From contig CP154954.1 in the NCBI GenBank assembly GCA_039621445.1, forward strand, positions 21,278,954-21,342,953: a stretch of 64,000 nt of DNA, in the 5' to 3' direction. Below are positions 6,508-63,013 of the stretch, in pieces. The notes beneath the pieces are model-generated. The model made no database searches. It worked only from the letters and a program-made list of their open reading frames with translations, and had not been told where the DNA came from. The stretch is from Euglena gracilis (taxonomy: Eukaryota). Numbering within the stretch: the stretch's first letter is position 1; every line of letters starts with the position of its first letter. The translations under genes were made by a program, and so were the position numbers.

Positions 6508-10604
<4,097 letters not shown>

Positions 10605-31298: not shown

Positions 31299-34200
31299 AA
31301 TGTTTCATGATTCTGGGCCATGGCCCCCAGAGACCCCATCTTTTTGGCCGTGGGGTGTTTGCCTGCCGACCACTGGGCCGGGTTCGACCTGAGGGTGTGC
31401 CTCCTTTGGCCCCCGAAGCTTCCGGTCCACCCCCCGTCGCCCACTGGTCTGGGCCATCACGGCATTCACGTCAAACCCGGGCGAGGGGGCCACCCACCCA
31501 CCCCCCTGGGCCAAGGCCTCCGGGGGACAAGCTGGTGCAGGACCAGGACTGGACCCGGGTGACGGCGATGTACAACCACATCGCCCTCATCTTCGAGCGG
31601 GACCGGGAGCGGAGCACGAGCGTGGGCCGCTGGGGTGTGCCCGATGTGCGACGGAGCGGCGCGAATTTGTTTTTGCCCAGGCAGTGTCGGAGGTGCAACA
31701 CAGGGGGTCCAACTGAGGGCACAAGACAAACATTAACTCAACCGAGTTCTTGTGACCCAGATTTTCAGCAATAAACTCCAAGAATAATTGTGTGGGATTT
31801 GAAATTTCGGCAATGTTCATAGCCGAAATGAAATTTGCCTTGGGATCCTACCACACTTCACCAATCGTCTCAACAAGAATTTCGGAGTTAAAAAGTGCAT
31901 TGCCCATGGATTTGGCAGCCATGTTGGTTTTGGTTTAAATCTGGTGCTTTTGGTGCTTCCATCTGATCGGCTGCCGCAGGAACCCACCCGACGTTCATGC
32001 AGCTGCTGTTGAAGCTCTGGGAGAGGTATGTTGCTGGTTTCTCACTTGTCCTTCCAGTCGGCAATTTATGGGTCGATGCCCACCCATGTTTTTTGCCTTG
32101 ACTGGCCATTTGGGTCGTTGCAGTGCCGTTGATTCTGCTCGCTTTTCGTTCTTGCGACGTTATTTGCCCCTGGAATTCTGTTCGATTCTGTGCCCTCTGG
32201 GATGGCGGAATTGGTTGATTTGGCGACGCTTATGATCACCCCAAAGCTCCCTTCCAGACCCGAGTTATCCAGCCAGCCAGCAAGGCTCTAAACTGGATGA
32301 ATTTGCCAATCCCCCCAACTTTCAACACTGCCATTTCGCCAAGGTGAGTTCTTGGTTCCAAAATATGCCGAGGTGAGTGTTTGGGTTGAAAAAAAATAGG
32401 TTGCAAAAGTATCTCGAAAACTTACCCCCAAATGGAGGTGTTTCGTAAAGCAGGGATCCAATCGCTCGCAATTTTTCTCCCGCAAATGGGGTTGTGCTCA
32501 AGGTGATAATCCGCGGTTATCATTCCCTATCTGACCCAGGGGGGTCGAGCGCCAGGAGGGCGTCCTCCTTTTTCCGCGTGGTGAGGTTTCTCTTACCATA
32601 AAGAGATGAGAAAAGCGCGGCAAAGACCCCCTAAAAGTGTCTTAATCTCCCCAAGCATCCAGAGGGAAATGTGTTTCCATTGTTTTCGCATTTTTGTGCA
32701 TTTTTTGTGCATTTTTCGAACTTTCCAAAAAAATGTTCATTTCTGCGCATTTATCGATTTTTTTTGCAACTTTTTTTCGATTTCTTTCAGCGCATTTTTT
32801 TTGCCATTTTGGCACATTTTTTTGTGATTTACCCAGTATTTCGCATTTTTCACCATTTTATAATTTTTTTCGATATTTTTTGAAACTGATATTTTCTTTA
32901 TAATTCCATATAATTCCCGTAAATTTGGTGCCATTTTTTGCATGTTTTGGGGTAGTTTTGCATGTTTTTTTTCCAGATTTTGCAAATTTTGTATATTTTT
33001 TGCGCTTTTTTTGCACACTTTGCACTTTTTTTTTTTGCGGGGCTGGACTAGCGCATCCACCTCCCCCCCCCCCCTGAACCAGGGGTTTTTTTTAGTCGTG
33101 GACCCCCAGGGGGAGGGGTCCGGCCGAGCCCCCCCCCCCCCCCGGGGGGTCCCCCGGAGGGGGGTGGGATATACTTTTCGGCGCCAAAGGCGCCGAAAAA
33201 GTGCTATTTTAGCACTTTTCGCGATTTTTCGGCCATTTTTTGTGGGTCCCCTGGGGGGGGGCCCCCCAGGGGGTGGGTGGGTGGGGGGGACCCCCCTCCC
33301 CCCCCCCGGTCTTAAAAAAACCCCTGCCCTGAACGTCCTGATTTTTTGAATTTTCGGGAAAATTTGCCATTTTTAAGTGTTCAAACGATGTATCCTAAAT
33401 TTTGAGACATATTATTTTCACAGTGCACGATCCTGGTTTTGGCGGCTTATTTTGGACCCTCCCACCAGAAAAAATTTTGGGCCAAAATTTTCAGCGAAAA
33501 TCCCAAAAGGGTGACCCTCCTTGTGATTTTCAGCAACTGACCCAAAAGGTCTATTTTCGGGGTGGGGTTTACAGGAGATCCCACAGGTTGCTTTTTTTCC
33601 CTTCTGAAGATGGGCGTTTCGTTGTTGATATTGTTATTGCACAAAAGAAGGGTGCAAAGAAGAACATATTAAATGCAATGTTGTGAACCCGCGATGCTTG
33701 TTTTTTTGCTTTCTTTTCTCCCGCGCAGACTACGTTGGATGCTGGACCAAGGGGTCCTCACCCCCGAGTGCAAGCAAGCCAGTCGTCGGCTGTTCGACGC
33801 GGTGTGCTCCGCAACCCAGACCGAAAGGAACGCCCCGAGCGTGCGAGGCACTTTTGTGTTTATCCAGAGGAAGAAAGGGTCGAAGCCAGTGCAGCGCCTC
33901 CGCCAGACGGGACCCCAGCCAGTCCAGCCAGCTAGTTGCGTTTTTCAAGCCCTGGACGCCCTCCCTTTCCCACAGACATATTTCACCAGGCACCATCCAG
34001 CCGCCCTAAGAACGGCTGGATGGTAACAGGTTTTCCGCTTTGGAGGGTACCTAATTGGACCAACTTTGGGTGAAAAAGGGGTAAATTTGAATGCCCAGCT
34101 CAAATTCCTGAGCTAAAAATCAATTTCTGGCATAATTTGCCGGTTTTGGGACTTCGTTTGATTTTCCCTTGCCCAGTCCGACCCGGGTTCAGCCCAGGTT

Positions 34201-37200
34201 TAACTAGGGGGACCCCACCCCGGAGGGAGGGGTCAGCCACCGCCTGTTTCCAATCAGCCCGAACGTTCTGGCTTCTGACCTCCCCCCGGGGTTGTCAAGC
34301 GACGCCCTAGTCGAAACTTCTTCTTTACATGGTCGGAAGAATGAAAATTGATTGTAGGAAGGATTTATGAAAGCATTTTTTTTGTGAATTGGTGATGGAG
34401 ATTTGCGCAGGATATTGCTGATGGCAGAAAAGCAACACCCAAAGCGATACCGTCCTTGAAGGTGCAAAAGCACCGGAATCGGTGAAAAAAGTCCTTTGGG
34501 AATTTGTTTTGAAACCGCAGTTCCAGTCCCAACATGCTAATCCAGGTTTCCTTGGTGGTCGTTGTCTTATTTTTGGGTGGTCTCTTTCCGAGGGATATTG
34601 GATCAGGGGTTTTTTTTCTTAGTCGTAGACCCCCCGGGGGGAGGGGGGGGTAGGGTGGTCTGGCCGAGCGTCCCTCCAGGGGGACGAAGGCGCCGAAAAT
34701 TTTTGAAAAAGGTGCTATTTTTGGCATTCTCGCAATTTTTGGCCATTTTCGGGGAAATTGAGTGGGTCCCCTGGGACCCCCCCCCTGGGGCCCCCAGGGG
34801 GTGGGTGGGTGGGAGGACCCCCCCTCCCCCCGGTCTTGAAAAAAACCCTGGATTGGATTCAAGCATTGTGGATTCAAGAATTGTGGGCCTGCGTTATTTA
34901 TTATTATTTTGAGCCGATGGAGTACCTCTCAACCCCCCCTCCCCAGGTCAACCTGGAGCTGACGTTCAAGCAGACCAGCAAGATCCCTAAGTGGGGCAGC
35001 CTGGCACAGCACGGAGATTGCAGCCGGTTTTAAGGAAGTCCGCACCTTGAGAGGGTGAGTGCTTTGGGGGGCAGTGGGCACCCCCGGGGGTCGGGTTTTG
35101 GGATGAGTGGGGAACACACCTTTCGGTGCCAAAGGCACTGGGGCCCAAAAAATGGCCATTTTCAAGAAAAATTGTGCTTGACAGGCAGGCACCGGGACCC
35201 AAAACCGACCCCCCTTTCGGGGGTGTGCTTGCTGCGGACCTGCACCCATATGGGGTGGGTAACAAGAATCCTGAATGGGGAGATGTCAGGGCATACCAAA
35301 AAAAAAAAGACGAAACAGGCAAAAATGCCCCGAAGTCATCAAAGGATGTGTCAAACCTTATTCAGTTGCAAGCAGAATATGGATTAAGACCGGCTGGCAT
35401 AGTGGGACAAAATTTTTGAAGAAAAATATTGCTTGCCGTTTTTTTTGCTGCTTTCGACAGCTCTTGGCCCTTTTTTGCTGCTTTTGACTTCTTTTTGGGC
35501 AGGGAAAATGGGGTAAAAAATGGCCAGAAAATGGTCCAAAGGTGGCCAAAAGTTGCCGAAAGTGGGCAAAAGTCAATTGAAAAATGATAAAAATGGCCAA
35601 AAGCAATCAAAAGCAAAATGTGGCCTTCTCTGCCGTTTGGTGGCATTTTTTGGCCATTTTTGGCCAAAAATGTCCAAAACTGGCCTTAAAGTGGGCATAC
35701 GTGGGCAAAAATGGTGAGAATTGGCAAAAGCAGCTAAAAGCAAAAGCAGCAAAAGCAGCTAAAAAGGCAGACGAAAGAAGCAAAAAAGTTGGCAAAATTG
35801 GCCAAAAAGTTTGGCAAAATTGGCCTACAATGGGCAAAGGTGGACAAAAAAAAACGGCCAAGGTGGCCAAAAGTGGCCTCAAAGTGGCCAAAGAGCAGCA
35901 GAAGCACTCCAGTGGGCAAAGGTGTCCAAATTGGGCAAAAGTGGGCAAAGTTGCCCAAAAGTAACCAAAAGTGACCAAAACGCAACTAAAGCAGCCAAAA
36001 GTGGACAAAAACAGCTAATAGCAGCCAGAAGTGGGCAAAAAGTGGCGAAAGAATTTCGCTTAAAGTTGGGGTGACTGGGATTTCTATTGTCGTGACTGGG
36101 CGTTGGTTGTTTAAGCACTGGCCGACCCCCCAGGGGGGTTACTTCAGGGAGGGGCAAAATATGCACCGTGCAGTTTTTGCAGTTTTTTGCAGTTTTCACA
36201 TTTTGGGTTTTTTGCAGTTTTTTGCAGTTTTTTGCAGTTTTTTGCAGCTTTTTTTCTGAAAAAACTGCACACGTGCAGTTTTTTGCAGTTTTTTTTTGAT
36301 TTCAGTTTTGAGGAAACCTGAGGTGCTCATTTTTTGGTGCTCTGCGCCTTGTTACGCTGGATTATATTGTTTGAAGGGTGTTTCTCAAGAAAAAGTATAT
36401 CTCAAAAAATCTCTTCATGAGTTGTGTTGTCTACAGTAATCCCACCAGTTGTCTTGCCCCCAACTGTTTTGCCAACTGCCTTGCCTCTCGACACAACAGA
36501 AATTGTTGTAGCCACCATTCCAAAAAAAAAACAGATTGTTTCGGTGACAACGCCACAATTTCTCCCCAACCAAAATCGCTCCATCTCCAACTTGTGCATG
36601 TGGTGACAGATGTCACGATGCTTATTTTGGCAATTGTCATTTGCACACTCCTGAGCAGATTCAACTAATTATTTTGGGATTCGGGGACTAAATCCAAAAA
36701 CTGTTTTTTTTTGTGCAAATTTTGGTTGAAGTTGGAGTTTGCGAGATTCGTGGAGACGCAAAGGAGCACGAGCTCCTGTAGAAGATTGGGCCTTGTCCCA
36801 AGCATTTTGGCCAAATATCACACAAGCCAAATGCTTCAAAGAAGTCATTCTTATTTGCAAGAAATTCCCAGACCATTTGGCAATCCCCTAAAGACAGTAT
36901 TCAAAGTTTGTGATGGTTGTTGTAGATTTTTTTTAGTTTTGTAGATTTTTTGCATCGTGACATGGGTGAAGTTCACCCGGTGATGGACCGAAAGTTCCAA
37001 AACTGAACATCCCATGCAAGAATTAAAAGCATAGAAACTTTCTGCATATGGGTATGTGCATTTTTTCCATATTTAGCTGTTTGGCACCTCCGTGGGCATG
37101 GCCGTCACAAGCTTTGGTGCAGGAAAACCAGTGTGAACCAGCATCCAAACCAAACACATGACTTGTGTTTCAATGCATGAAAACCCATGTACAGTGTACC

Positions 37201-38232
37201 TTGATTGATTGCTTTCATTTTTATTGTCATCAGCTCCAAAGCTGTGCAAAAGTTAGGTGAATTACGTTGTTTTGCATATGCACACCATTTCAGCTTGTTT
37301 ATTGTTATTTTTTGTTGATGTGCAGTTTTTTTGCAGTTTTTTGCAGTTTTTTGCAGTTTTTTGCAGTTTTTTGCAGTGCAGTTTTTGACCTGCCCGTGTG
37401 CAGTTTTTGCCCCCCCCTGGTTACTTACTGGTTTTTTCAGAGTGACTGACTGGTTTTTTCAGAGTGACTGACTGGTTTTGGCCCAACCCCCCCCCCCCCC
37501 CGGGGGTGTCAGCCAGGGGTGGGCAAAAGTGGCTTTAGTGACCCCGGCGCTTTTGACGCCGGGGAAATTTTTTGGCCTAAAATGGCCTAAAGTGACTGGA
37601 GTGGCCAGTTTTCCTGAGAGGCCGACTCCCCCCGGGGGGGAGCAGTGATTAACGGTTTCCCAAAGAAAAAGTGATTGACTGGTTTTTCGAAGAGTGGAGT
37701 GACCCCCCCGGGTCGGTAAAAAATTGTATGCTGGGCGTGACTGGGCGTGATCGGGTGTGACTGGGTCCAGGACTCTGGATGACCATAGGTGCTTGTTTCA
37801 CTCCCCCCCCAAACGCAGACTCCGAAACTCCGTGCTGCGGCGGACTTGATGGCGACGTCCACCGCCTAGCTGCGGAGCACCGGACTGTGGGATCGTCTCG
37901 CTGGGGTGCCCCCCCCCCCCCGACCACTGACCAGCCCGCTGCTCTCCGCCCCCATGCTGGACAACCTCCGACCCGGCCCCTCGACCCGCCCAGCCGTTCC
38001 CGGCCTCGACCACTGTTTTGTCCTCGCCCACTGCGTTCCGCGGAGTCCCACCCGCAGGCGCCTGGCATTCTCTGTCACCGACCGCGCCAACCCCTGCCTC
38101 CCGCTGGCTGTTCACTGTCCCAAGGTGCAGCAAGTATGGCCGTGGAACGTCTTTCTCGCCGTTATGAACCCGCAACTCAACCCCCTGCACCCGGACCCAA
38201 CCACCTGGCGTTGGTTTGTGCGCTATTTTTGA
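26824..38232 (+). CDS. Hypothetical multi-exon protein (GKKKGAKMSLGDFLG near the N-terminus)
   Basis: Coding-like exons, several AG/GT-bounded: 26824-26883, 29127-29208 (EHSVEVEEAPLSADPLLKYSSYFTNEG), ~30476-30530, ~31190-31212, ~31525-31634 (KLVQDQDWTRVTAMYNHIALIFERDRERSTSVGRW), ~32540-32585, 33729-33801 (LRWMLDQGVLTPECKQASRRLFDA), 34947-35004 (VNLELTFKQTSKIPKWGSL), 37843-~37885 (GLDGDVHRLAAEHR) and ~37935-38232. Several junction phases are unresolved. Confidence 0.5.
26941..28466. mobile_element. 1.5-kb TIR element with 24-bp perfect TIR and 7-bp TSD
   Basis: tggaatg|CAGGGGCAGGGAGATATTCCGGTC...GACCGGAATATCTCCCTGCCCCTG|tggaatg, with subterminal ACCGGAATAA repeats. Confidence 0.9.
31237..31296. 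repeat. (CA)n microsatellite
   Basis: Directly visible. Confidence 0.97.
33080..33326. mobile_element. MITE of the CAGGGGTTTTTTT family, copy 1, 8-bp TSD
   Basis: ccctgaac|CAGGGGTTTTTTTTAG...CTTAAAAAAACCCCTG|ccctgaac. Confidence 0.9.
34604..34850. mobile_element. MITE of the CAGGGGTTTTTTT family, copy 2
   Basis: TSD tattggat/gattggat (7/8); same internal sequence as copy 1. Confidence 0.85.
36145..37419. mobile_element. 1.27-kb element rich in TGCAGTTTTT repeats, 7-bp TSD, nested in another MITE (36104-37730)
   Basis: gttactt|CAGGGAGGGG...CCCCCCCTG|gttactt. The host element is flanked by ctgggcgt repeats. Confidence 0.85.
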
Positions 38233-39285: not shown

Positions 39286-40805
39286 ATAATTTCGATTTTA
39301 TTATATTCGAAATTATTTCTAAGTCGCATTCGGGCTTGATTCTTCCTGAGACTTTTTGTCCAATTTTTTTGTCATTTTTTTTAACAAAATACCCAAAGTT
39401 ACATAAAGAACAAAGTTGCATGTTTTTGGACTATTTTGCTTTTGGAAAGAAATGTGAATGACAGCACACACCGTTGCAAAATAATCAAGCAGGCGAAATT
39501 TTTCCAAGTCCTTCCAGCTGAAATGTGTACATTCCAAATAAATTTTTCCCCACAATTTTCCCACAATTTTTTTCCCTAGGGCGTCCGATATCACCCCCCC
39601 CCCTCAGTCAAGATTTTGGTAGGGTCGATGTCAGCTGATGAAGATTCTTTTGGAAAAAGGAAAATTTTGGCAAAAAAAAGGGAAAAAATTCTATTCCTTT
39701 TTTTTGCCAAAATTTTGCCAGAAAAACGGGAATGGACAGTGGGGGTACCGACCCCCCCCCCACCAAGAACACAGCAAACCATGGGTTCCCCGGGGATCCC
39801 ATTCAGCCTTATTCGGCCGATCAACACTAATCTTTTCCCCCCTCAAACTCTACGGATTGGTTTGCACATTCACCGCCGATCCTGATTTCTTCCTCAGGTG
39901 TTGTATTCCCCCCCAAGGCTTTCTGGCCCAGAAAAGGAAGACAACGTTGGGAAGGACATGGGGGGGGGGGTCTTCCCGTGCCGACGTCTTTCCGGTCAGG
40001 GTTTGCGGTGGCGGCGACCCGCGATGCTGGCGGAGCGATGCCTGAGACCGCCGCTGCGCTGAGCCCACCCCGCCATGCTTGCCGCAACCCCCGCATTGCG
40101 TCCCCCTCTCTGCCCAGGGGTCGGCGTGTGCCCGTACTTTGCCCGTTTCCTTTAAACCTTCGAGTCCTGCGAACATTTGAGTGGTGAAGTGAGTCCTCGT
40201 CTAGCTCGTGCGTTTCCACCAATAACAGGAAAGAAAACACGGGTATTTCAAAATCGTCCTCGCAAAAGCAATCAAACTGAGTCCCAAGAGCGTCCGATTT
40301 GCAATGATCGCCAACAGAACAAGGAAAACATAACTGCGGGAATTGTTTGTTGCTTTTTTGTGAAGCTTTGAGGCCGACAATTGGGATCAGAATAAGCACC
40401 TCCTCCCCACTTCCGAAACACCCAGTCCCGAATACCCATCCAACAGCAAACATTCGGCTAATAGTGTCTCATGCTACTGCGGCACGGGGTTGCTATTTGT
40501 CGTATTTAGGTGATATTTGGGTGGTCCAGTTGTCGTGACCGATTCCTGGTCCCCTCCAGGAACACACCTTTCGCGGGCCCTTCCCCAGCGTTGCCGCCCT
40601 GGCGCTTCCCACTGCCGCTGCCCATCCTTGGTGTGCCTGCCGCTGGCTTTGGCCGGAGTGCACTCTGTTCTGAGGGTGCCCTTCTGTTGCGTAAAGATCT
40701 GTGGCATGGGGATGGCCTGCTTTCACGTCCCCAAATGTGCTGTTGTGCTGTTTGAAGACACCATTTCTGCTCAGGAGGCGATTTCATAACCCGCAGCCTC
40801 CCTCC

Positions 40806-41047
40806 CAGGGGTTTTTTTTTTAGTCTTGGACCCCCTCCCCCCGGGGGTGGGGGCTGGTGGGTATCTTTTTCGGCACCGAAGGCGCCAAAAATTTTGGAAA
40901 AGGTGCTATTTTTGGCATTTTTGACCATTTTCGGGCAAAAGTGGGAGGGTCCCCCGAAACCCCCCGGGGGGCCCCACCCCAGGGGGTGGGTGGGTGGGTG
41001 CCGACCCCCTCCCCCCCTCTCCCCCGGTCTTAAAAAAAAAACCCCTG
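40806..41047. mobile_element. MITE of the CAGGGGTTTTTTT family, copy 3, 8-bp TSD
   Basis: ctccctcc|CAGGGG...CCCCTG|ctccctcc. Confidence 0.9.
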
Positions 41048-41875
41048 CTCCCTCCTTTAACCTTTGCTGCTATTGATGTCGCCGCTTTCTTGCTGGTCGC
41101 CTGCTTCTTGATGTTCGCGAGATGGCTCTTTCCCCGCCGTCGGGTGTGGGCGTCCAACACAACCACAACCATCATCCAATTGGTGCATACACTGCCTTAT
41201 GAAAGACGGTGATCGGGATTACTCAACGTGTTTCTCTCTCAACCTGTGATCTCTTGGGGGGGGGTTTGGATCTGATATGCCCCACCAAGCATCCCAGAAT
41301 TCTAGATATCATTTACCGGATTGTCTGTTCAGGTGCTGCCTTTGATCACTCAACCCGTTGAAGGAGTCCCCAGCGCTGACATACAGTTTGCAGTATTTCA
41401 GGTCCTTTTTGTTGCCAATGTCAGGCAAGCTTGGCCAACCAATGTTGGAGGGGTTGCTGCTATCCGTTCAGGGTTGGTTGATTCCAGTTTCACCTTTGCC
41501 GCCATCACCAATGACCAAGACCCCAAAGCAGAGCAGATGCCCGTGGGTCCAATGCATAACACATTCAACCCACTATCTGTCCCAAACCAGTATCTGTCCT
41601 TAAATTTGCCACACGCATCTGAGAAGCCTGTGGCTCTCACTCGGTCCAATGCGGTTGCACAGACGGTTTGCACGGTTCTGTGGCCGCAACGTGTGCCGCA
41701 TTCGATATGCACTGTTTCTGTCTCGTTCGGGTGTCCAACCGTTTCATTTCATTCTTTGAGATATTGTTCTGCCTTAAAAAATCTCCTGGCCGCACCCCCT
41801 GGGGCTGTTGTAAGCAGGTGGGGGGGGGGGGCATTTTCACCAGCCCCCAGAGGTCGGGCCTTGGGGAGGCTGCGG

Positions 41876-42350
41876 CTAGGTTCGATATTAGGAGGGTGTG
41901 CGGAGTTCAGGTGGAGGGATGTCCTCCCTCCTCCTGAAACCATAGGGGTTACCCCGCTTGGCAGGGGGTCTGGACCAACCCGGGGTGAGGACCCCCAAGT
42001 CTGTTTGGGAATCCCTGAAACCCCATGGGAGGCGGGTGCCCCTCCACCAGGCCTTCCCGTATTTTCCGGGGTGCCGATTTTTAGGTCAACGTTTTCATTC
42101 GACAACAAAGGCGCCGAAGGGATTTTTCCTTGCGCAGGTGCTGTGTTGGGGGGTGCCACAGGGGGGGGGGGCAGGTCGACCACCCCCCCACCAGGCCTTC
42201 CCATACAGCCCAACCAAAAAGGTCAAATTTTTCTTTCCGGCACTTCATGCCGAAAACATTTGGGAATTTCGACATTTTTTTATGCCTGCTCCTGGCCCTC
42301 TTGGACCAGGGGCGGGGGGTTCGACCCCCACCTGCTCTTATCGAACCCTG
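41876..42350. mobile_element. MITE related to the CAGGGTTyGATATAAGG family
   Basis: TSD ggctgcgg/ggctgcag (7/8); right end TATCGAACCCTG. Confidence 0.7.
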
Positions 42351-42554
42351 GGCTGCAGACAGAAGCCAGCCATCTCCGAATGGCGGCGCTGTGCCTGAGG
42401 GGTGGGCAGTTTTGCTGGCGCAGGAAACTGAGTGGTCCGGGGGTCCAGTGGTCCTCTCGGCTTGGGTTGACCCAGGCAAGTTTCTCTTGAAGACAGACGC
42501 CAATTTTTGGACATCCGGCGCTGTCCTGTACCCCACCCGTCCCCCACCCTTCAG

Positions 42555-45500
42555 GTCTCAACTTCCACAGCGCCTGAGGGGTGTCTGTCAGATCCCCAAC
42601 GTGCAGTCGGAGGGCATCCGTGGCTGCGCCAAGCAGGAGGGGGCGAAACGCTGCGGCGACCTGGGAGCAGTCCGTTGCCTCAGCTGGACGAGTTTGGATT
42701 GCGAAAGGTGTTGACTCCACTGAGCTGCTTTTTTGTGAGCTTGCTGCATACCTCGGTTTTCTTTTGGTTCAATGATGTATTGTTTAATTGTGCTGGAGTT
42801 CAGAGTGTGTCGCATTGCCAGGAGTGGACCAAGTGCTTCGTGCCGGACGTCCCCGAAGCCGCTTTGGCGGACGTTTCGGAACATCTTCAACAGCACGTGT
42901 ACGATGTCCTGGTGGACGTGCGCGATGCGCGGCTGCCACAATCATCCCTCCACCCACAATACCAGGAATTGGCCAAAATTGTGCAAGTGTGTGTGGTACC
43001 AAACCTGGAATGAAAGTCTGATGGATCCAGTGGCAAGAGCCCGACAATGTGTTTGAAATATTTTTTTGAAAAAAATGTTTTCTTGTCAGAAAGGTTGAAT
43101 ATAGGAGTACGCATGAAGTCGAGCTGAACGCACCAACCTGCTAGTCAAACTTTGTATGGGGGGTTGGTTTGTATTTTTTGGTGTTTGTTGCGTTTTGCAC
43201 GCTGGAGCTGGGGTCCTGACCGTATCTGATGTGTGACGAAGCTTTTTTACGCAAATGCTTTATGTGGTTTCACAAAGAAAATTGTGGACTGAAAGCTGAA
43301 AACTGAACGCGAATCAAATCATCCTGACGTGGGCAATTTCGTCTCCGGCTACCAAATTTGGCGGTGTTGTCAAAATTGGTTGGGCGTTTTCGCTCAGTTG
43401 CCTGCCCAGGGTTTCCAGCTCAGTCGCTGATTTGCGTTGCATTCTGCGGCGGTGCTCATCGGGCCCGTGCCAACCCCTCCCTCCCTCTGCCATCGCCTGC
43501 CTCCCTCCCAGGCCCACATCGTGTGCTACACCCACGCGGAGCGGCTCCGCCGGGAGGACCTCCACCGGGTCGCGGCGTGGACAGAGCACACCCACGGCCC
43601 CTCCGCTCAGCAGCTGTCTCTTCCCCAGCGTGGCGCCTGTGGGGAGGGGGAGGTAATGCAGATTTTTGAGGACCGGCAGCCACCCTGCAGGGTTGGTTGG
43701 CACGAAGCCCGTCACAAATCACGGTGTTCACTTTGCGGATCGAGCGATCGCCACTCATCCAAGTGTTCGCGATCTCGTTCCAGCCTGGCTACGGACATCA
43801 CGGTAACAGCCATGATGCCTGTGGGCTCGCTGAGGGCGGAGGGCTGGGCCGGCGACTGCTGAATGCACCGCCGTCTTCTTCCTGGACCTGCGGCGGGTGC
43901 GGCGAATGGACCGGAAGCAGCCCTGGCGGCTCCTTTGCCCACCCATGGTGGACTCGGGCGGGTGGGGGGGAGAGTGTTGGTTTGTGTAGAATGGGGACAC
44001 TCGTAATTGCAGGCCAGGGTTTTGGACAGGGTGCAGGCCAGGTATGGGGTCAGGGTTTGTGAAACTGTTGGGGTCGGGTGTGGCCCACCTGCTACTGGAC
44101 CAGACATGACGCCCACAGCAAGGATGCGCCATCCGGCCGACATGCCACGCGTCGCGGTCCCCCAGTCAGCAGCACGACCTGACTCCGGTGCCCAACCCCG
44201 ACAAGGTCCGGCCGCACCGCCAACAAGGATCAACAGCCGGTGGGTGCATGCATGTCGAACGGGCCACTGCCTTCATCGGAATGCCGGAATCCGGGGAACG
44301 CAGGGATCCCGAGGGGCCCCCAGCCCCCGGCCAGCGCCGCCCTCCGGCCCCTGCGGCGGGCGGTGGCCGCCGCGTGCCGGGCCGGCGGGGGCGCCGAGGC
44401 GCTGGTGGCGGGCCTCCCCAACGCCGGCAAGAGCAGCCTGCTGCACCCGCTGGCCCGCCGGTTCCTGCAGGCGGCGTGGAAGCGGAGGTCCGAGGACCAC
44501 ATGCCCCAGGTCACGTCCAGAACTCGCGATGGGGGACCCCCTGGTTGGGGGGGGGACCCCGATCTCAAGAAAATCCCGACATATGTGCTGTTGCTGAATT
44601 TTGGCGTGTTGCCACGTTGGAATCCACCAAGGCAAAAACTCTGTCACCATCCAGCCGCCCGAAATGCAGCTGGACAGAAATTAAAATTCCTTGATGGGGG
44701 GGGGGTGGGAGGGTGGTTGGCTGGACCATCTCCCATGGGGGGTGAGGAGGTGCTTTTCAATGCAATGCGTGTGTCGATAATTGCCCAGCCACTTTAAATT
44801 TTGGGTCTATAAATCAAAATCTTAATATTTTGACAACTATTGGGGCTTGTCTGTTACTTTGATTTTTTTGGCACCCGGTAAGACCCCTGTGGGTGCTGCC
44901 CGCGGGATTTGTCGGTATTTGTTGGGATTTCTCGGGATTTCTCGGGTTTTGTTGTGGTTTGCACGTTGGAGCTGGGATAGGTGACGAAGCTGTTTCGTGC
45001 AAATGATTTATGTGGTTTCGCAAAAAAAAATTGTGCAGAACTGAAAGTCAACCAGATCATCCTGACGTGGGCAATTTCGTCCCTGTGACCATATTTGGCG
45101 GTGTTGTAAGGATTGGTTGTTGGGCTTTGTCGGGATTTGTGGAACCCCCACCTCAAGGAGGCCAAAGAGATGTTGTCACGATCTGTTCTGATTTGTTGGG
45201 ATTTATCAGGACTTGTCGGGATGCATCGTTGGAGGTGCTTGGCAGCCACGTTGGGAGAATTTGTAGAAGAGGCGAAGAGAAATGTCCAGATGAAATTTTG
45301 GTGCGGAGTCATTTCACAAGTTTGCCTGCATCCCTCGCCAGTGTTATTGAGCCCAAAAAAACTGACTGGTCAGCATTTCAAACCGACCAGTCAGTCAGTC
45401 CGTCTGAAATACTGGGTGCATGTTCAGGAAAGAATGTCCAAGTCAACCATATTGCACTTATATTTTTCCTTGCAAGGCAGCACCAAATAGGACGAATTTG

Positions 45501-48500
45501 ATTTGGGTGCAAATGCTTAGGAGAAAATAATAAAACGACCCCGGGCAGGGGGCGAGGAAGAGCAGAGGCTGGAGATTTTGGACTGGCAGAAGAAAGGCTA
45601 CTGGCTTACTGCCCCTGATCAAAGTGTTTGGAGGTGCATGGCGGCGCATAACCTGGCGGGAGGTGCTGGACAGCTTGCCTCTGAGGGAAAAGTTGCCGAC
45701 TGGTGGGTTGGCCGACTGAAAGGAACACCCCCAGGGGTCGGTCAACAGTCAATGATCCCGAGCACATGAATTTTGAGGTGGTTTTTGGCCAAACATCGTC
45801 TCTTCCGCCGGCGTTGAGCCCTGGGATGGGTCAGGGTCCCCGCCGCCCCCCGCCACAGGTTGCCTGCAAGCCCGGCACAACCACCTCCGTGCTGCCCTAC
45901 CCCATGCCCAGTCCCTGCTGTGCTGTTCCCAGAGAGCGAAATGGGGGAAAGGGAATTTGTGGTACTGCCCCATCCGAAACCATGTCGTGTTCGAAATCAA
46001 CCCCCGTGGTACATGGGCGTTGGGAGCCCACTTCTTCTTGTTGTTGTTGTTGTTGTTATCATCGTCGTCGTTGTTACTGCAATTGCACAAGTGGTCCAAA
46101 ATTAGTTGTATTTTTTGATTTTTTTTTAATGGTGATTTGTGAAGAAAAAAAAGGGGGGAGTCAACAAAACAGCGCCCGCAAAGTGGAGGTGTTCGTGCAG
46201 CATTCCTGAACGCAATGTACAGCATGTACAGCATGTCTGAGAGGGTCAAAGAAAGCGTGTCAGGGTATTGCATCATATGCCATATTTAACTTTTATAATT
46301 CAACGTGTACACACCTTCACATAATCTGCAATTCATCGTTTATGCGGTCAGCTTGTGAAATTGCACAATTAATTCTCCTCAAACCGACCATTTGCGCTAT
46401 TGCGCTACCGACCATGGACGCAATTATGGGAACGTCCATTCCCATAATTGCACAAGTGGACCATTTCCGCAGTTGCCCAAGTGGTTGGTTTGCACATTTT
46501 GCAACTGGTTTGTGTGTGCAATTGCGCACAGGGACCGACAGGAACAATTTTTTTTTAAAATAAATCAAATCAAAGTGTAAGTTTTTGTGGAAAGCTCAAT
46601 GTTGTCTGCCCCACCGACACCCCAAGTTGATGAGGCAGCCGTTGGAAGTTTCCCAAGCACACATGCTGGGTGTCCATGTGCTGCACGTATGCTGTTTGGG
46701 ACACCTGCCTCTAGAACACCATAAACTCTGCCTCAACGGTCCTGCGGCACCAGACCACGTCCTGATCATATTAAACAGGTTTAGGCGCCGTTTGTTGGGA
46801 CTTTCGAAAAACACAAACAGTGCGTTTGCGCAATTCCGCACGGCCAATATTGTTTTAAGTGCGAGATCGGCTGCCTGACTGGTTTGGGTTGATTTCAACG
46901 CGGCGGCCACACGTCACATAAGCCACGGAACACCGGCTTTCGGTCACCCACAGCTTTCAAACGTGCGCCATGTGTGCCGCTTGCGCAGGGGAACAACGTT
47001 CATGTGGGCAGTCCGGTCCGGCAGTCCGGCAAATCATTCTGTGGACCAGGCTTGTGCTTAGTCGGGTGCACCCCCCGGGGGGTTGGGCCTTTGGGGGTGC
47101 CTGCCTGTAGCAGGCACCCCCCTCCAACCCCGGCGCCAAAGGTGCCGGCGGCCTGGAAAAGGCCATTTTCAATGAAAATTTTCTGGGTCCCCCCAACCCC
47201 CCCCCCGGGGTGTGCCTGCTAGGGACAGGTACCCTATAGCACCCACCCACCAGCATGCTGTGGGGCCTAGGCAAAAGAGGGGGGTCCCGCGGGACGCCCC
47301 TGTCGAGTTGTGAACTCAACCGGACCGGTCGAGTTCGAGGGGGAGAGGGGGGTCCGTGGTCTGGACTAACAGAAAACAATGGGGGAGCCCAGGCACCGTG
47401 GGACCCCCCCCCCCGCAGATGCTGAACAAGATGCAGATTGAACAAGATGTCGACACTGGACAAGATGCAGATGCTGTACAAGTGCAGATGCTGTACAAGA
47501 TGCAGATGCTGGACAAGATGCAGATGCTGGGCAAGATGCAGATGCTGGACAAGATGCAGATATTGGAGAAGATGCAGGGGATGCAGGTACTAGACAAGAT
47601 TAAGATCTTGACAAGACGCAGGTATTGGATAAGATGCACACACCAGACAAGATGCAGTGATTGCTGATGCAATGTCCTGGTCGAGGTCCGAACTCCCCTG
47701 TCGAGGTCCGAACTCAGCCAGACAGGGGGGGGTGGGAGGTAAGGTTGGGACGACTACTGTGCCCCCCCCCCCGAGTTAGTCACCCCCCCCCTACCTGGGT
47801 TGTCCCCTCTTCGTCCCCCGGGGGGCGAATACCGTCCTGCACCGCCGGGCCTGCCCCCCAGCCTGCCGGCCGCAGTGGCTCTGGGGCATCGACACCCCCG
47901 GGCTGGACCCCCCGGCGACAGCGTTCCAGGAGGACCCAGAGCTGGGCTCAGGGGTTTTCTAAAGCCGGAGGGATCCTCCCCCAGGGGGGGGGTCCATCCA
48001 GCCAGCACGTTTTTTCCAGCCAACAACTCCCTCCCCAGGTCCGCCGAAAAACAGTTGGGGCTGGACCAAAAACTGCCAATGGTTTTTTTCGAGAGAGAAA
48101 AAATTGGGGGAAGGGGCCAAAAATGGTATTTTTTGAGGGGATTTTGAGCTTCCCTGATTTTTTTTGAAAAATCCCAAAAAAAAACCAAGCTGAAATTGCA
48201 TTTTTCTTTTGCCATTTTTTAGGTGCCAGGCAGGTCCAGCTGCAGGGAGGGGGAAAATATGCACCGTGCAGTTTTTGCAGTTTTTGCAGTTTTCACGTTT
48301 TGGGATTTTTTTTTGCAGTTTTTTGCAGTTTTGCAGCTTTTTTTCTGAAAAAACTGCACACGTGCAGTTTTTTGCATTTTTTTTTAATTCCAGTTTTGAG
48401 GAAACCTGAGGTGTTTATTTTTTGGTGGTCTGCGCCTTATTATGCTGGATTATATGTTTGAAGGGTGTTTCACAAAAGAAAGCATCATCTGTTCATAAGT

Positions 48501-51500
48501 TGTGCTGTCTACAGCTATCCCATCAGTTGTCTTGCCCCCCAATTGTTCTGCCAACTGCCTTGCCTCTCAATACAACAGAGATTGTTGTAGCCACCATTCC
48601 AAAAAAAAACAGATTGTTTCGGTGACAAGGCCACAATTACTCCTCAACCAAAATTGCTCCATCTCCAACCTGTGCATGTGGTGACAGATGTCACGATGCT
48701 TATTTTGGCAAGTGTCATTTGCACACTCCTGAAAAGATTCAACTAATTATGTTGGGATTCCTAGGGACTAAATCCAAAAACTTTTTTTGTGTGCAAATTT
48801 TGGTTGAAGTTGAATTTGAGGATTTTGGAATTTGTCAGCCAAAGCTCCTGACGAATGAATGAATGAATGCTTGGGTCTTGCCCCAAGCATTGTGGCCAAA
48901 TGTCGCACAAGCCAAATGCTTCAAAGTGCAAAAAATTCTTTCTTATTTGCAGGAAATTCCCAGGTGGTAGACCATTTGGCAATCCCCTCAATACAATGTT
49001 CAAAGTTTGCGATGGTTGTTGTAGATTTTTTCTATCGTGACATGGGGAAATTTCACCAGGGGATGGACCGAAAGTTCCAAACTGAAGATCCCCTGCAAGA
49101 ATTGAAAGCATTGAAAATTTCTGTGTACGGGTATTTTTGCATTTTTTTCCACATTTAGAAAGGAAACCGTTTGCCAGGGTTTGATATAAGGAGGGCGTAC
49201 ATGGTTTAGGTGGGGGGGTGTCCCCCCCCACCCCCCCCCCCTCCTGGCCCGCAGGGGGGGGGTCAGGACCCCCCCCCCCCCACCTGCCAGGGGGGTCCGG
49301 ACCGACCCTCGGGGGGGTTCCCGGGACCCCCCCCAAAAAGGGTCAATTTTTTCCTCCGGCGCTTTGCGCCGAAAATTTTTTGCATTTTTGGCACATTTTT
49401 GCCCAAAAAGTGCCCAAAATGGCACTTTTGGTCGTTTTGGGGGGTCAAAAATTTTCGGCCACCCTGACCGCGCACCTGTTTAGGTGGGGGGGGTGTCCCC
49501 CCCACCCCCCCCTCCTGGCCCGCAGGGGGGGGGGGTCCGGACCACCCCCCCACCTGTCCTTATATCGAACCCTGCCGTTTGGTATCTTTGTGGGCATGGT
49601 TGGTACAAGTTTTGGTGCAGGAAAACCGGTGTGACCCGGCATCCAAACACATGCCTTGCATTTCAGTGCATGAAAAACCATGTTCAGTGCACCTTGATTG
49701 ATTGCTTCCATTTTTGTCGTCATCAGCTCCAAAGCTGTGCAAAAAAAAAGTTATGTGAATTGGGGCGTGCTCGTGTGGTCGCAATTTACGTTGTTTTGCA
49801 TGTGCACACCAAGTCAGCTTGTTTATAGCTATTTTTTGTTGAAGTGCAGTCTTTTGCAGTTTTTTTGCAGTTTTTTGCAGTTTTTTTTTGCAGTTTTTTG
49901 CAGTGCAGTTTTTGACCAGCCTGTGTGCAGTTTTTCCCCCCCCCCCCTGCCAGCTGCCGCCGGCCGCCCCCCCCCCCCCCCCGTACTCCCCCCCCCACAG
50001 TGGTTCCAGCCATCACCTTCTTTTCCGGCTAGCACCATTTGCCAGCCAGCTTGTGCCCCCCCCCCCCGGGTCCATGAGAAAACCCCTAGATGGGCTTCAA
50101 GCTGTTCCTCACAGGCCATCTGCGCCGGGGCAGGGCTCCATGTGCGGTGGACGTTGCCGACTACGTGCTGTGGAAGTGCAATTGGGTGCGTCCCCTGTGA
50201 CCTGGCCCTTGGTGGGGGCTGGAATGTCGAGGCAGGTTTTATCTGGTGGAGGCTGGCGGGGACCGGAGGAGGGGGCTCACATTTACATGGGTGCGCTCCA
50301 GTGCAAAAGCTCTGATGCCACATATATTCATGTGTTGGATGAATTACCCACGTGTGCACGCAAACCAATCACGCCCCCCCCCAAACTGAAGCTCCGGAGG
50401 TGGTGGTGCGCTTCAATTTTGGATTTTGATATTCTTTTGGGTTTGCATCATTATGGGGATTGTGTTTAATGGATGGCCACCTTTGGGAATTGATTTTGTT
50501 GTTTTCACAACAAAATTACTGGAAAGAGTAACGGCAAAAATATTTGAGTGTTCTGTTTTGCCCCATTGGAATTTGTCATTTTTTTTTAATTTAACGGCTG
50601 TCAATCCATGCAATGTTTGGAAAGGGTCACAATTTCTTCCAGGGTTTGCCCATGCGACCAATACAACCACCAACGATGAGAATCTCCCCAAGCTCCAATG
50701 TCTTTTCCAGGCTTCTGTTTAAGGAAGTAAGGGGAGGTGCTATGGGCAGGTGGGGGGTGGGGGTTGAAAGTGGGTGGGTAGTGCTATGGAACATCCTCCA
50801 GTGCCGAAAGGCACCAGGGACCCGAAAACGACCATTGTCAAGAGAAATTGGTCGGAGGAAGCTATCATGATAACCGCTTTTGCGGATGTTTCGGGCCTAC
50901 AAACTGCAATTGGTGACCTACAATGCCGCCTTGCGCAACTTTCAACCACAAATCCCAGTATGGGAGCACTCAGATCCACTGTGGCTGATTTGCACAATCA
51001 GTTGCAAGTGGATGTGAGCAAAATTGAATCCGCATTTCTGGAATTGCCGGCAACGTGTCCAAAACTGTGTGTGTGGGGGTGCTCGCATTGGGCAGGCGCC
51101 CCATAGCACCCAACCCCCCGGGGGGGGGAGGGGTTGGATAAGGAAGCCTGGTCTTCTGTTATCGTCAGAACTCAGCCATTCTCCCCATGTCAGCTTAATT
51201 GTTCTTTCCACATCTGTGATCTGAAGACGGATCCCAATGGTCAATCGAGCAACCATTGCTTTCTCATTGCTGTCTCTACTCAGCTTCGCCACCATTTCTA
51301 TGTTCCGATTTTAAAACTCCGTTCACCCCAGTGCTTGTTGACTCCCAAGGTGGATCACTTCGGGGTTTTCCCTCCAATCTCCGTCCACCACCCACTCACC
51401 CAGCCATCTGCACACACAGGGAGAGGCAAGAATACAGACACCCACATGCACACATATACACACAGACACATACATACACACATAAATTGTATACAATCAC

Positions 51501-52683
51501 ACACGTGCAGACGCATACATCCACACATACATGCATTCACACAATCACACACATATATGGACACATGCATACACACATACGCATATGCACACATACCGAC
51601 ACATACACACACACACACACATACAAGCATTCACACATGCACATTCACACATGCACACATACAAGCACATGCATACATATGCACACACACACATGTATAT
51701 GCGTACACGCACATACAGACAGAAGCACCCACACAGGTGCGCACAGACACATAGATTTGCAAAATGGAATTTTGCTTTTTTGTCGCAACCAATGGATTCC
51801 TGAAGCGGTGGGTTGCTGCCAGGGGCCTACTGATGACATCCAATTAATCCTGCGACAGTTTATGGGAGTGGCAGATTACGGTGTGACCTGGCGCCCCATG
51901 CAGCCACTGCTCAATTTCTCCACCTCCCCGGATCATGGAAAATATTTTTTACACATGTATGAAATTTTCATAGAACGCAATGAGTATACATCACATATTG
52001 TGACATATCACATGATGTTTCCTTGCCGTTTTTGCTGACACATCGGTGTCTACATATGAGTGTGCATTGTGTGCATGCGTTGATGGGAACCTTTTGGCCC
52101 CAGGGTTTGATATAAGGAGGGCGTACATGGTTTAGGTGGGGGGGTGTCCCCCCCACCCCCCCCCCTCCTGGCCCGCAGGGGGGGGTCCGGACCACCCCCC
52201 CCCCACCTGCCAGGGGGGTCCGGACCGACCCTCGGGGGGGTTCCCGGCCCCCCCCCCCAAAACGGTCAATTTTTTCCTCCGGCGCTTCGCGCCGAAAATT
52301 TTTTGCATTTTTGTCACATTTTTGCCCAAAAAGTGCCCAAAATGGCACTTTTGGTCGTTTTGGGGGGTCAAAAATTTTCGGCCACCCTGACCGCGCACCT
52401 GTTTAGGTGGGGGGGGTTTCCCCCCCCCCCCCCCCCCCTCCTGGCCCGCAGGGGGGGGGTCCGGACCACCCCCCCCACCTGTCCTTATATCGAACCCTGT
52501 TTGGCCCTCCCTGCTGCCCATGCCTGGGCACCGGCTCCCTCCCTGCCGCCCGCAGGCGACCCGCGGGCGGAGGCCCGGGCGGCGGAGTGCTTCCTCGGGT
52601 TGGCGGCGGAGCACGGCTTCGACCGCCTCGTGCTGGACCCACTGCCGCTGCCCGCCGGGGCCCCCGGCCAGGCTCTTTTGTAA
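42555..52683 (+). CDS. RbgA/YlqF/MTG1-like circularly permuted GTPase, paralog A, multi-exon
   Basis: Exons 42555-42707, 42822-42986 (DVLVDVRDARLPQSSLHP), 43512-~43591 (HIVCYTHAERL, G4 position), ~43851-43896, 44324-~44520 (VAGLPNAGKSSLL, G1), ~47820-47945 (LWGIDTPGL, G3), 50094-50185 (GFKLFLTG..VADYVLWKCN), 51284-~51304, ~51802-51880 and 52556-52683 (AAECFLGLAAEHGFDRLVLD..stop). The G4-G1-G3 order is diagnostic of circularly permuted GTPases. Confidence 0.85.
47415..47660. repeat. 18-bp minisatellite (GATGCAGATGCTGGACAA)
   Basis: Tandem units inside a GTPase A intron. Confidence 0.85.
48243..49949. mobile_element. Second copy of the 36145-37419 element, 7-bp TSD
   Basis: ccagctg|CAGGGAGGGG...CCCCCTG|ccagctg; collinear similarity to 36145-37419. 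Confidence 0.88.
49175..49574. mobile_element. 400-bp MITE (CAGGGTTTGATATAAGG family) nested in 48243-49949
   Basis: TSD ccgtttgc/ccgtttgg; absent from the paralogous site near 37077. Confidence 0.9.
52101..52499. mobile_element. 399-bp MITE, near-identical to 49175-49574, perfect 8-bp TSD
   Basis: tttggccc|CAGGGTTTGATATAAGG...CCTTATATCGAACCCTG|tttggccc. Confidence 0.92.
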
Positions 52684-57981: not shown

Positions 57982-58834
57982 TGGCAGGAAGAAATGGAGT
58001 CAGAACGGACGTTGGGGCAGGAAACATCATCTCCTTCTTGCTTTGTTTGAAAGTGAACCAGCGGTGCTACGCTGAGGTGTGCGTGCGTACATACGTGTGT
58101 GTGTGTGTGTGTGTTTGTGTGGGTGTGGGTGGGTGGGTGGGTGGATGTGTGCATCGGCGTGAGCTACATCCGTCCTTGGGTGTTAAAACCAGAGCCCTGT
58201 GCGAGGTTTCTGGTCTGAACCTGAAGATGACGATGCCTCGCTGGGGACTCCTCACGTGGCTGGTCTGTTCTTATTCCGAACGAAAATTGTGATTTCTTTG
58301 CAACCTTTATCAAGTCGGCTAATCCGACTTAGAAAAATTTCGGTGGGGTCGCTTAGCGAACAAGTACCAAAGTCGGTACTTGTCTGTTGTCACGCGGCAG
58401 AACCCCGCCCCCTTTTGGGTCGCACTTTTGGAGTTTTTGCCCTTCAGGCAAATCACCCCATTTCCCTGTTCTGGGTGGGCAACCTTGCATGACAAAGGGG
58501 TCAGCGGCTTTTATCCCCCTTTTCTCCAACTGCCGCCTCTGGGTTTCTTGCAAGGTGCGGGACAATGCGAGCGTGCCAAATAAAATTTTTTGGCCCGGCC
58601 AAAAACCCTCCATCGGCTGGGGCTCAGGGACAATAGGGGGGGGTAAACGCCGACCAGAAGCAGCCTGGCCGCACCTTGCCACCAGGGTTTTGGCTTGTCT
58701 TGGAAATGGGACTTTGTTTTTCCCGGTTACGAGACTGTCCAAAAGTGAAAGTGCTTTCGACTTTCTGGCCCGCTGTGATCAACCCCACTCCACCAGTCAG
58801 CCCACTGCATGGACCGCCACCTCATATTCAATTT

Positions 58835-60519
<1,685 letters not shown>

Positions 60520-60540
60520 ATTGGTTGCTGTGATTGATAG

Positions 60541-61617: not shown

Positions 61618-61893
61618 GCATTCGTGCCAGTGTGTCTCTCTGGGCATGGTTGAAAGTTCGATTGTGCATATATACACGCACATACATATACCTATAACAT
61701 GCATGCACATATGTTTATACATTATATACATATATGTATATGTAACATCGAACTTTCAACCATGCAATTATATATATATATATATATATATTCAACTCTA
61801 CATGTAGTTCAATTATATATTTTATTGCAGGCGCATTTTTCACACCTCGGGTTGGGTTGGAATTTCCTTCAGCTGAATTATGGGATGCCCCAG

Positions 61894-62927
61894 ACCCCCA
61901 CGTGACACCGCGCTTGAGAATGCGCTGCGTGTGTTGCGCACTGTCCCGTTCGCTGTTGTCTTGGAGGTGCGGGACGCTCGCATCCCACGGTCAACACACA
62001 GGGAGCTCTGGCACCCCATTTTTAAATCAATTTTGAGCTTGACGAGGGCAGGACCACAAGAGCTGCGCTCCTGCAATGTGCGGGGGAGTGTATGCTTTGT
62101 TTTCGGCCCGAGGCCATGGGCTCAGAAGAGCAAAACCCCCTCTCAATATAAGCTCCCCCAATATATACACCGTCCAAATATAAGTCCCCCCTCCGATGTG
62201 CAAGCAGATGATGGTGCCATTCAGGAAATTTGGGGTGTATACCACATTTTTTTCCTCCAGAAATGCTCCCTTCTGGATAAAATTGCACATTTTTGTTGAA
62301 AATAGGAGGTGCACAACGAAAATTTGGCATAAAGTTGGTATTTGGCTGCAGTTGAAGACCGCCAATTTTTATAGTCCACCCAGAACGTTTGATTCCCCTC
62401 CCCCCCCCCAATTATATTGCCCTCCCCAGAGGGTATTGAAATTGGATCACATAGGGCTTGTTGATTGCGACGATAAAGCAGGGAGCATCCGAACGGGGGG
62501 GGGGGGCATCCAATTGAATCGCCCGGACCACGGCTGGACGGAATCCCCAAACCCCTGTGGATGGTGGGTGGCCTTTCCGCCTTTTCCGGGGGGTGCCAAT
62601 TTTTAGCCCAGAATTTTCCGTCGGCGCCACCGGGCAGTGCAGTGCTGTGATGGGGGGTCGCCCCCCCCCCACCTCCCGGCTGGGGAGGTCGACCGCCCTC
62701 CCGCCCGGCCATCCAGTGCCGCCCTGCCCCCCCCCCATTTCTTTCAGTCGTGTGGCAGTGGGGGGGGGGGGGCTGCTGGCCCCGGCCTGTCCCCCTGCGG
62801 CCGGCCCACCCGCTGATCGGCAAGGTGGCCCGCCAGGCGGCGGTCCACTTCGTGGTCTTCACCCATGCGGACCTCCTGCCCCCCGCGGAGCTGCAGCGCG
62901 TCACCCGCTGGGCACTGCAGGAGGCCC
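61894..62927 (+). CDS. RbgA/YlqF/MTG1-like GTPase, paralog B (partial; probably continues past the window)
   Basis: Exons ~61894-61995 (DTALENALRVLRTVPFAVVLEVRDARIPRST) and 62803-~62927 (AHPLIGKVARQAAVHFVVFTHADLLPPAELQRVTRWA), joined in frame across the nonconventional intron 61996-62802. Clearly homologous to paralog A. Confidence 0.75.
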
Positions 62928-62941
62928 GTGAACCGGACCCA

Positions 62942-62944
<3 letters not shown>

Positions 62945-63013
<69 letters not shown>
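62945..63013. repeat. (GT)n microsatellite
   Basis: Directly visible. Confidence 0.95.

Follow-up and report, generated by a model that had tools for sequence, protein, structure and literature searches.

The stretch of DNA analysed here, 64,000 nucleotides long and referred to below as the window, carries on its + strand a gene that by its sequence is probably a ribosome-assembly GTPase of the YlqF/MTG1 type; it begins near 40.0 kb and reaches 50.2 kb or beyond. Between two open half-exons of this gene lies a nest of transposable elements three layers deep, and excision of positions 47946-50093 restores a single reading frame across the interruption. The two inner layers are multi-copy elements, one of their copies preserves an empty site, and two other introns of the same gene display the splicing register that is predicted for the interruption. 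[quoted passage not shown] That the outer intron is precisely removed today, despite a 3' motif that reads CTA, appears to us marginally more probable than not.

We propose that a non-autonomous hAT-like DNA transposon inserted into a coding exon between a Leu and a Gly codon (...EDPEL|GFKLF...). This outer element would then have received a 1.3-kb element whose termini are of the same type, and the 1.3-kb element in turn a 400-bp MITE, the interruption growing from about 0.43 kb to 2.15 kb. Removal from the pre-mRNA would follow the euglenid nonconventional pathway, mediated by the stem that the inverted repeats form. With cleavage 3 nt upstream of the 5' CAG and 5 nt downstream of the 3' CTG, the element would be lost together with exactly one copy of its duplication, and the frame that preceded insertion would return.

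Anatomy and mobility of the nested elements

Direct reading of positions 47400-50700, with a script re-check of all boundaries, delimits an outer element of the terminal-inverted-repeat (TIR) type at 47949-50088. Its TIRs are complementary at 11 of 12 positions, the outermost pair being C/A, and the two copies of its duplication are identical at seven of eight. The layers and their borders are as follows.

47941-47948: upstream 8-bp target-site duplication of the outer element, GCTGGGCT
47949-50088, no strand assigned: outer element, non-autonomous and probably hAT-like; 2,140 bp, about 426 bp without the nested insert
47949-47960: 5' TIR of the outer element, CAGGGGTTTTCT
50077-50088: 3' TIR of the outer element, AGAAAACCCCTA
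50089-50096: downstream 8-bp target-site duplication of the outer element, GATGGGCT
48236-48242 and 49950-49956: perfect 7-bp duplication CCAGCTG of the middle element
48243-49949, no strand assigned: middle element; 1,707 bp, with the MITE counted in; ends CAGGGAGGGGG.../...CCCCCCCCCCCCTG (CAGGG.../...CCCTG)
49167-49174: upstream 8-bp duplication of the 400-bp MITE, CCGTTTGC
49175-49574, no strand assigned: innermost MITE, 400 bp, with terminal repeats of about 18 bp (CAGGGTTTGATATAAGGA...)
49575-49582: downstream 8-bp duplication of the 400-bp MITE, CCGTTTGG
36145-37419, no strand assigned: second copy of the middle element; it lacks the MITE and is flanked by a different 7-bp duplication, GTTACTT
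52101-52499, no strand assigned: second copy of the 400-bp MITE; its 8-bp duplication, TTTGGCCC, is perfect

An earlier note on this DNA had described the same three levels, with an element bearing a 7-bp duplication inside the outer one and a MITE bearing an 8-bp duplication inside that. Its coordinates and sequence strings were all exact, the boundaries and the second copies agree with its nest, and the growth of the intron by nested insertion that it put forward is directly visible in the layered anatomy.

Comparison of each layer with the window by BLAST aligned the middle element to its second copy with 83.7% identity over 962 columns and 80.2% over 374 columns, and the 400-bp MITE to its own second copy with 95.05% identity over 404 columns. 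The MITE duplication in the intron matches at seven of eight positions (CCGTTTGC/CCGTTTGG). Furthermore, the second copy of the middle element retains the corresponding empty site: a lone CTGTTTGG stands at 37077-37084, and in the intron copy this 8-mer flanks the MITE on both sides. The empty site is established by BLAST coordinates and direct reading; a MAFFT alignment of the filled and empty versions misplaced the left flank. Copies with different flanks are thus seen for the middle element and the 400-bp MITE, and none for the outer element within the 64 kb. These structures are direct proof that elements with intron-type ends have transposed.

Such structures greatly exceed chance expectation. 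Under a fixed rule ([C/T]AGG...CCT[G/A] ends, at least 11 of 14 terminal positions complementary, a flanking 7- or 8-bp repeat with at most one mismatch, ends 60-4000 bp apart) the window contains 13 TIR-plus-duplication structures, nine with 8-bp and four with 7-bp repeats, two of which have a common right end, so that at most 12 are independent. Forty dinucleotide-preserving shuffles yielded a mean of 0.025 and a maximum of one structure, placing the window about 500-fold above the shuffled expectation.

We take the outer element itself to be a transposon because it has its own ends and its own duplication and because its first 10 bases are those of a three-copy MITE family of about 245 bp in the window. 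Non-autonomous hAT elements and MITEs generate 8-bp target duplications, carry short inverted repeats beginning C/T-A-G and are commonly nested in gene-rich DNA. By these hallmarks, an 8-bp duplication and C/T-A-G termini, the outer element would be hAT-like. The likeness extends to the 8-bp duplications of both the outer element (7/8) and the MITE (7/8, and 8/8 in its second copy) and to the CAGGG-type termini; the middle element, in contrast, has 7-bp duplications in both of its two copies and fits a hAT assignment poorly. No long non-repetitive open reading frame (ORF) suggestive of a transposase was found in the window, and an Rfam scan of the window found no family.

The ends of the middle element carry five to eight same-strand direct copies of a TTTTTTGCAG-like unit (48260-48345 and 49843-49915), and the same repeats occur in its second copy (36165-36250 and 37320-37385). 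They could be subterminal repeats that bind a transposase; they also resemble polypyrimidine-plus-CAG acceptor sites. The 400-bp MITE family is also represented at about 41876-42352, within the conventional intron 41402-42554, by a decayed member whose 5' end is mutated and whose flanks read by eye as GGCTGCGG and GGCTGCAG. The same elements therefore occupy ordinary GT-AG introns too.

Host gene, splicing register and the interrupted exon

In a word-based protein search, the exon at 42.8-43.0 kb had a sole match, the eukprot entry EG_transcript_27538 (224 aa; E 2.4e-25), in which we take "EG" to stand for Euglena gracilis. Mapping this transcript-derived protein back onto the window, with junctions refined by eye, gave a model of eight exons with an open frame of 266 codons, in which 180 of 225 aligned columns are identical (80%) and all 224 residues of the entry are spanned. 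This match marks the host as a euglenid, most likely a species of Euglena, that is a relative of the organism behind the transcript but probably distinct from it. The gene model and the elements that bear on its introns are listed here.

40038-40111, 40554-40630, 40775-40802, 41053-41143, 41333-41401, 42555-42707, 42822-42986 and 43512-43652, + strand: exons 1-8 of the GTPase model, from mapping of the transcript protein
40112-40553, + strand: nonconventional intron, GCC-CAG...CTG-GTCCC; non-slidable, with no recognisable duplication left
40803-41052, + strand: nonconventional intron made up of a 242-bp MITE (40806-41047) and 8 further nt; its 8-bp duplication, CTCCCTCC, is perfect
33080-33326 and 34604-34850: family copies of the 242-bp MITE, homologous over its whole length

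Assignment to the YlqF family is suggested by weak but colinear, exon-sized matches. Two stretches of TIGR03596 were located, positions 19-47 near 42.9 kb and positions 120-141 near 44.4 kb, with scores of 18 and 14 bits, far below the curated cut-off of 208. A profile that we built from 98 of 120 motif-containing bacterial ORFs, 22 having been dropped by length, start or GK[ST] filters, placed its positions 21-52 and 125-146 at the same sites. A family search for control YlqF sequences from an E. coli entry point returned other GTPases only and no control loci.

The seven introns of the model comprise five conventional and two nonconventional ones. All five of the conventional introns, which are transcript-supported, end in CAG|G, and four start with GTG and one with GTC. 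The two nonconventional introns bear directly on the splicing register. Removal of 40112-40553 reproduces the SPSLSRNTPF stretch of EG_transcript_27538 exactly and is an independent check of the 3/5 register; removal of 40803-41052 yields a peptide that aligns to the same entry across the site. Both fit the arrangement N3-CAG...CTG-N5. Published accounts place CAG at +4 to +6 and CTG at -8 to -6 of euglenid nonconventional introns (PMC11282704, PMC3935182), and knock-in mutagenesis has defined the code as 5'-N3CDG...CH'GN5-6|R-3' (Nomura et al. 2025, PMC12501133). Thus the "3+5 rule" of the earlier note is real, being obeyed by both of the other nonconventional introns of the gene, but it is not new, since it equals the published Euglena code.

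What the window adds is an arithmetic reading of this code. Three plus five equals the 8-bp duplication, and splicing therefore takes out the element with a single copy of the duplication and leaves no scar. The sum of eight means that the frame is restored at any codon phase; it is also restored in either orientation, since both strands of a TIR element show CAG...CTG. This identity offers a simple reason for the otherwise odd 3/5 spacing of the splicing code.

The predicted outer intron and its flanks can be set against the same code.

47876-47945, + strand: upstream half-exon with a G3-type DTPG motif, ending ...EDPEL plus the first base of the Gly codon; conventional CAG acceptor at 47873-47875
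47946-50093, + strand: predicted nonconventional intron, 2,148 nt (element of 2,140 plus 8); GCT, CAG...CTA, GATGG, followed by the purine G at 50094
50094-50185, + strand: downstream half-exon, GFKLFLTG..., followed by a GTGCGT donor at 50186

Excision of 47946-50093 joins ...GAG CTG G|GC TTC... in frame, as the earlier note had correctly read from the CTG GGC codons. The joined halves are open over 55 + 36 codons in one frame, and the insert has stops in that frame close to each of its two borders (TAA 47960-47962 and TAG 50087). The outer borders of the half-exons, a CAG acceptor and the GTGCGT donor, resemble those of the gene's five transcript-supported conventional introns. In the intron itself GCT|CAG at 47946-47951 puts CAG (CDG) at +4 to +6, and the first downstream exon base, G at 50094, is a purine; the place of CTG (CH'G) at -8 to -6 is taken by CTA (50086-50088), followed by GATGG. 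Seven registers (-3 to +3) give an identical mRNA, and "3+5" is therefore unreadable from this locus alone. None of the seven has G[T/C]...AG borders, the 3+5 register giving GC...GG. The proposal that the outer intron is a second, independent case of the rule overlooks that its 3' end violates the rule. The duplication copies GCTGGGCT/GATGGGCT do have the single mismatch that had been noted, yet placing it in the spliced-out copy presupposes the 3+5 register, and the mutation may have arisen in either copy.

Pairing of the intron ends is strong. The earlier note had suggested folding them, and the stem does form: 11 consecutive pairs lie just inside CAG and the 3' motif, the ends cofold at -52.0 kcal/mol, and pair probabilities in the outer stem average 0.946 when the partition function is computed over the full 2,188-nt RNA. 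By folding, terminal stems form in all layers, so that the CAG-type ends pair in each as had been claimed, though the 3' motif of the outer layer is CTA. Each inner layer retains an intact N3-CAG...CTG-N5 arrangement and a strong stem; in the middle layer, with its 7-bp duplication, a 3+5 excision would take one base more than was inserted, which is harmless within an intron. The inner layers could plausibly be cut out as separate circles, although folding does not require it. Indeed, deleting either the MITE layer or the middle layer leaves the outer stem probability at 0.946, so that folding shows no thermodynamic need for stepwise removal. Stepwise splicing is thus a speculation from the layered sequence, and in one study of removal order nonconventional-splicing intermediates were very rare (PMC6221363).

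The joined peptide aligns colinearly to bacterial YlqF across the junction (DTPG...G-x-K-L-x-L; best match L086, E 0.05 in the 98-sequence database) and occupies positions 173-195 of the profile, which keeps it in line with the exons before it. The 98-ORF profile is too insensitive to score the junction. Taken alone, neither half-exon found anything meaningful in Pfam, NCBIfam or PDB (in PDB, zero hits and two spurious ones).

Several features were recorded in the surroundings of these exons. A putative exon at 46989-47043, joined through a CAG...CTG intron at 47044-47870, is in frame but was rejected, bringing no gain in profile support. An end at 47047 is identical over 20 nt to the 5' end of a 102-bp MITE at 9168-9269 and starts 3 nt past the open frame; no matching 3' end was found for it, the best candidate being CTG at 47863-47865. 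Imperfect tandem repeats of about 18 nt (GATGCAGATGCTGGACAA-like) occupy 47420-47640, directly upstream of the interrupted exon. A second fragment of a YlqF-like GTPase gene, on the + strand at 61877-63000, contains an EVRDARIP-type motif and, further on, a THADL-type exon, and runs off the window; a protein search with it gave 101 candidates, none at E up to 10. A GT/GC-rich, dinucleotide-type microsatellite of about 1.7 kb (about 58800-60530) translates as CV/CA repeats in all frames and has strong GC and AT skew, and shorter runs of the kind lie at about 51.4-51.8 kb and 63.3-63.5 kb.

The CTA end and competing explanations

Several observations weigh against precise removal of the outer intron today. 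Its 3' motif is CTA, whereas the code demands CTG or at least a final G. In the mutagenesis study no single substitution within CAG or CTG left splicing unimpaired, and the CTG-to-CTA knock-in abolished splicing of the test intron in vivo, leaving intron-retaining transcripts (PMC12501133). The published signature, which needs the final G, covers 61.2% of nonconventional introns (PMC12501133). Homology at the junction is weak, with a profile score of about 0 bits, and by this measure precise excision is indistinguishable from products one codon shorter or four codons longer. Protein searches found no transcript-derived protein covering the junction 47945/50094: the junction query had four word-sharing candidates, none of which scored, and an exhaustive search with the downstream half-exon gave nine matches, of which the eight inspected (P0002-P0009) were all spurious, seven being dockerin-like repeat proteins and one another repetitive protein (P0005), with the ninth (P0010) left uninspected. 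No exon model was obtained for 43.65-47.87 kb, and the intactness of the whole gene is unproven. Finally, the outer element is single-copy, with no second copy within the window, and its native termini stand without comparison.

The CTA end may mean that the allele is dead. A G-to-A change from CTG to CTA would have disabled splicing, the 2.1-kb insert would be retained with its stop at TAA 47960-47962, and no full GTPase would be made. The knock-in result speaks for this, as do the clustering of two substitutions within 3 nt at the outer 3' boundary and the presence of the second YlqF-like fragment at 61.9-63 kb. A terminal A is found in only one of the 13 TIR-plus-duplication structures of the window and therefore looks like a mutation and not a family norm. 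Nevertheless, both exon halves are still open and keep their GTPase motifs, the upstream 266 codons are intact and the 11-bp outer stem is strong; moreover, 38.8% of the annotated nonconventional introns of E. agilis lie outside the strict signature and are spliced all the same (PMC12501133). We therefore consider a null allele rather unlikely, if worth keeping in mind. The same G-to-A change would have created an AG acceptor, by which the conventional spliceosome could use cryptic sites made by the element. Two such options are in frame, 47954-50089 (GT...AG, with AG at 50088-50089), which is four codons longer, and 47939-50089 (GA...AG), which is one codon shorter and marginally better against YlqF (23.9 versus 22.3 bits; profile -0.0 versus -0.6 bits). 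For euglenids, both intermediate introns and the conversion of one intron type into another have been put forward (PMC3935182, PMC4770533). These score differences are, however, within noise, and the cryptic sites (TAG|A, paired with GTT or GA) are unlike the CAG|G ends and the GTG (four) or GTC (one) starts of the gene's conventional introns; cryptic splicing of this kind seems improbable.

It could also be supposed that the flanks are not exonic, the nest lying beyond the recognisable GTPase exons, within a long intron or within non-coding DNA, with frame continuity and the DTPG motif as coincidences. The near-zero profile score of the joined halves, the lack of a meaningful Pfam, NCBIfam or PDB match to either half alone and the gap in the exon model between 43.65 and 47.87 kb would all accommodate this. 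Against it stand the 55 + 36 open codons restored in one frame, the colinear order of the motifs (the P-loop, at 44.4 kb, precedes DTPG, at 47.9 kb), the consensus-like acceptor and donor that border the two halves and the YlqF alignment that spans the junction, and we give the idea little credence. Precise excision of 47946-50093 through the nonconventional pathway is the reading with which we proceed.

Relation to known introns and the origin question

The predicted outer intron shares much with the euglenid nonconventional introns described by Nomura et al. and by Milanowski et al. in 2014 and 2016 (PMC12501133, PMC3935182, PMC4770533): a euglenid host, the absence of a GT/GC-AG pair, CAG at +4 to +6, an 11-bp stem beside the motif, a 5-nt 3' spacer, a purine at the exon start, a junction made slidable by direct repeats and a kilobase length within the reported range. 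It is unlike them in having CTA for CTG/CHG and in being visibly a transposon, with a near-intact 8-bp duplication and two further transposons nested within. Introners of Amoebophrya likewise have non-canonical borders, end-pairing inverted repeats of 8-20 nt and short direct repeats at the junction, but they belong to another phylum, their direct repeats measure 3-5 nt, and the accessible part of the account reports neither a CAG/CTG motif nor a fixed 3/5 spacing (Farhat et al. 2021, PMC7789003). Closest in logic are the introners with 8-nt target duplications from dinoflagellates and Aureococcus (Roy et al., preprint 10.1101/2020.10.14.339549), which share the non-autonomous TIR element inserted in an exon, the intron length of element plus one duplication, the restored mRNA and the use of either orientation. 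Those introners are spliceosomal, with GT/GC/GA-AG borders supplied by the element or recruited from the duplication, whereas a CAG/CTG stem code would operate here; GT/GC-AG borders from element or duplication were found in no precise-excision register. A dinoflagellate introner reading, based on GC/GA-type donors and poly-C runs, was dropped on the strength of the EG_transcript_27538 match and of the GT-AG and CAG/CTG-stem introns. Introns within introns are also known from the Euglena plastid, whose twintrons are group II/III introns inside introns with obligatory sequential removal. The intron-in-intron arrangement is common to both; here there is no sign of an obligatory order, and folding needs none.

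A MITE-like origin of nonconventional introns was proposed in 2014 from inverted repeats alone, at a time when no euglenid transposon was known (PMC3935182). In 2016 an 8-nt direct repeat at a recently gained gapC intron of E. agilis was ascribed to double-strand-break repair (PMC4770533), and a 2024 review mentions junction repeats resembling target-site duplications (PMC11282704). In 2025 the origin was still called unclear, 84.4% of introns being set aside as "slidable" owing to direct repeats (PMC12501133). A word search of two large introner surveys found no occurrence of "Euglen" or "hAT". Within the searchable literature, outside which subscription papers and supplements lie, we found no description of transposon families that form introns in euglenids and show duplications and empty sites, of a hAT assignment or of nested nonconventional introns. 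The window supplies these missing pieces: multi-copy families with 8-bp duplications, an empty site, a family member whose site in a coding exon is a validated intron position, and a nest three deep in another exon. The transposon-origin hypothesis thereby becomes testable genome-wide, and the CTA end offers a natural probe of the code's strictness.

It is tempting to speculate further, in terms that we ourselves hold as tentative and doubtful in their full breadth, that nonconventional splicing may be an RNA-level "undo" for one superfamily of CAG-ended transposons with 8-bp duplications. The 3/5 offsets would then exist in order to sum to the duplication, most slidable introns of Euglena would be decaying 8-bp duplications, and nested intact layers would leave as separate circles. 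Circular excision products have been published for euglenid nonconventional introns (PMC12501133, PMC11282704). If this is true, a CTA-ended layer would represent either tolerance of the code where the stem is long or the moment of an intron's death or type conversion, and scarless erasure at any phase and in either orientation would let such elements flood coding sequence and pile up in nests.

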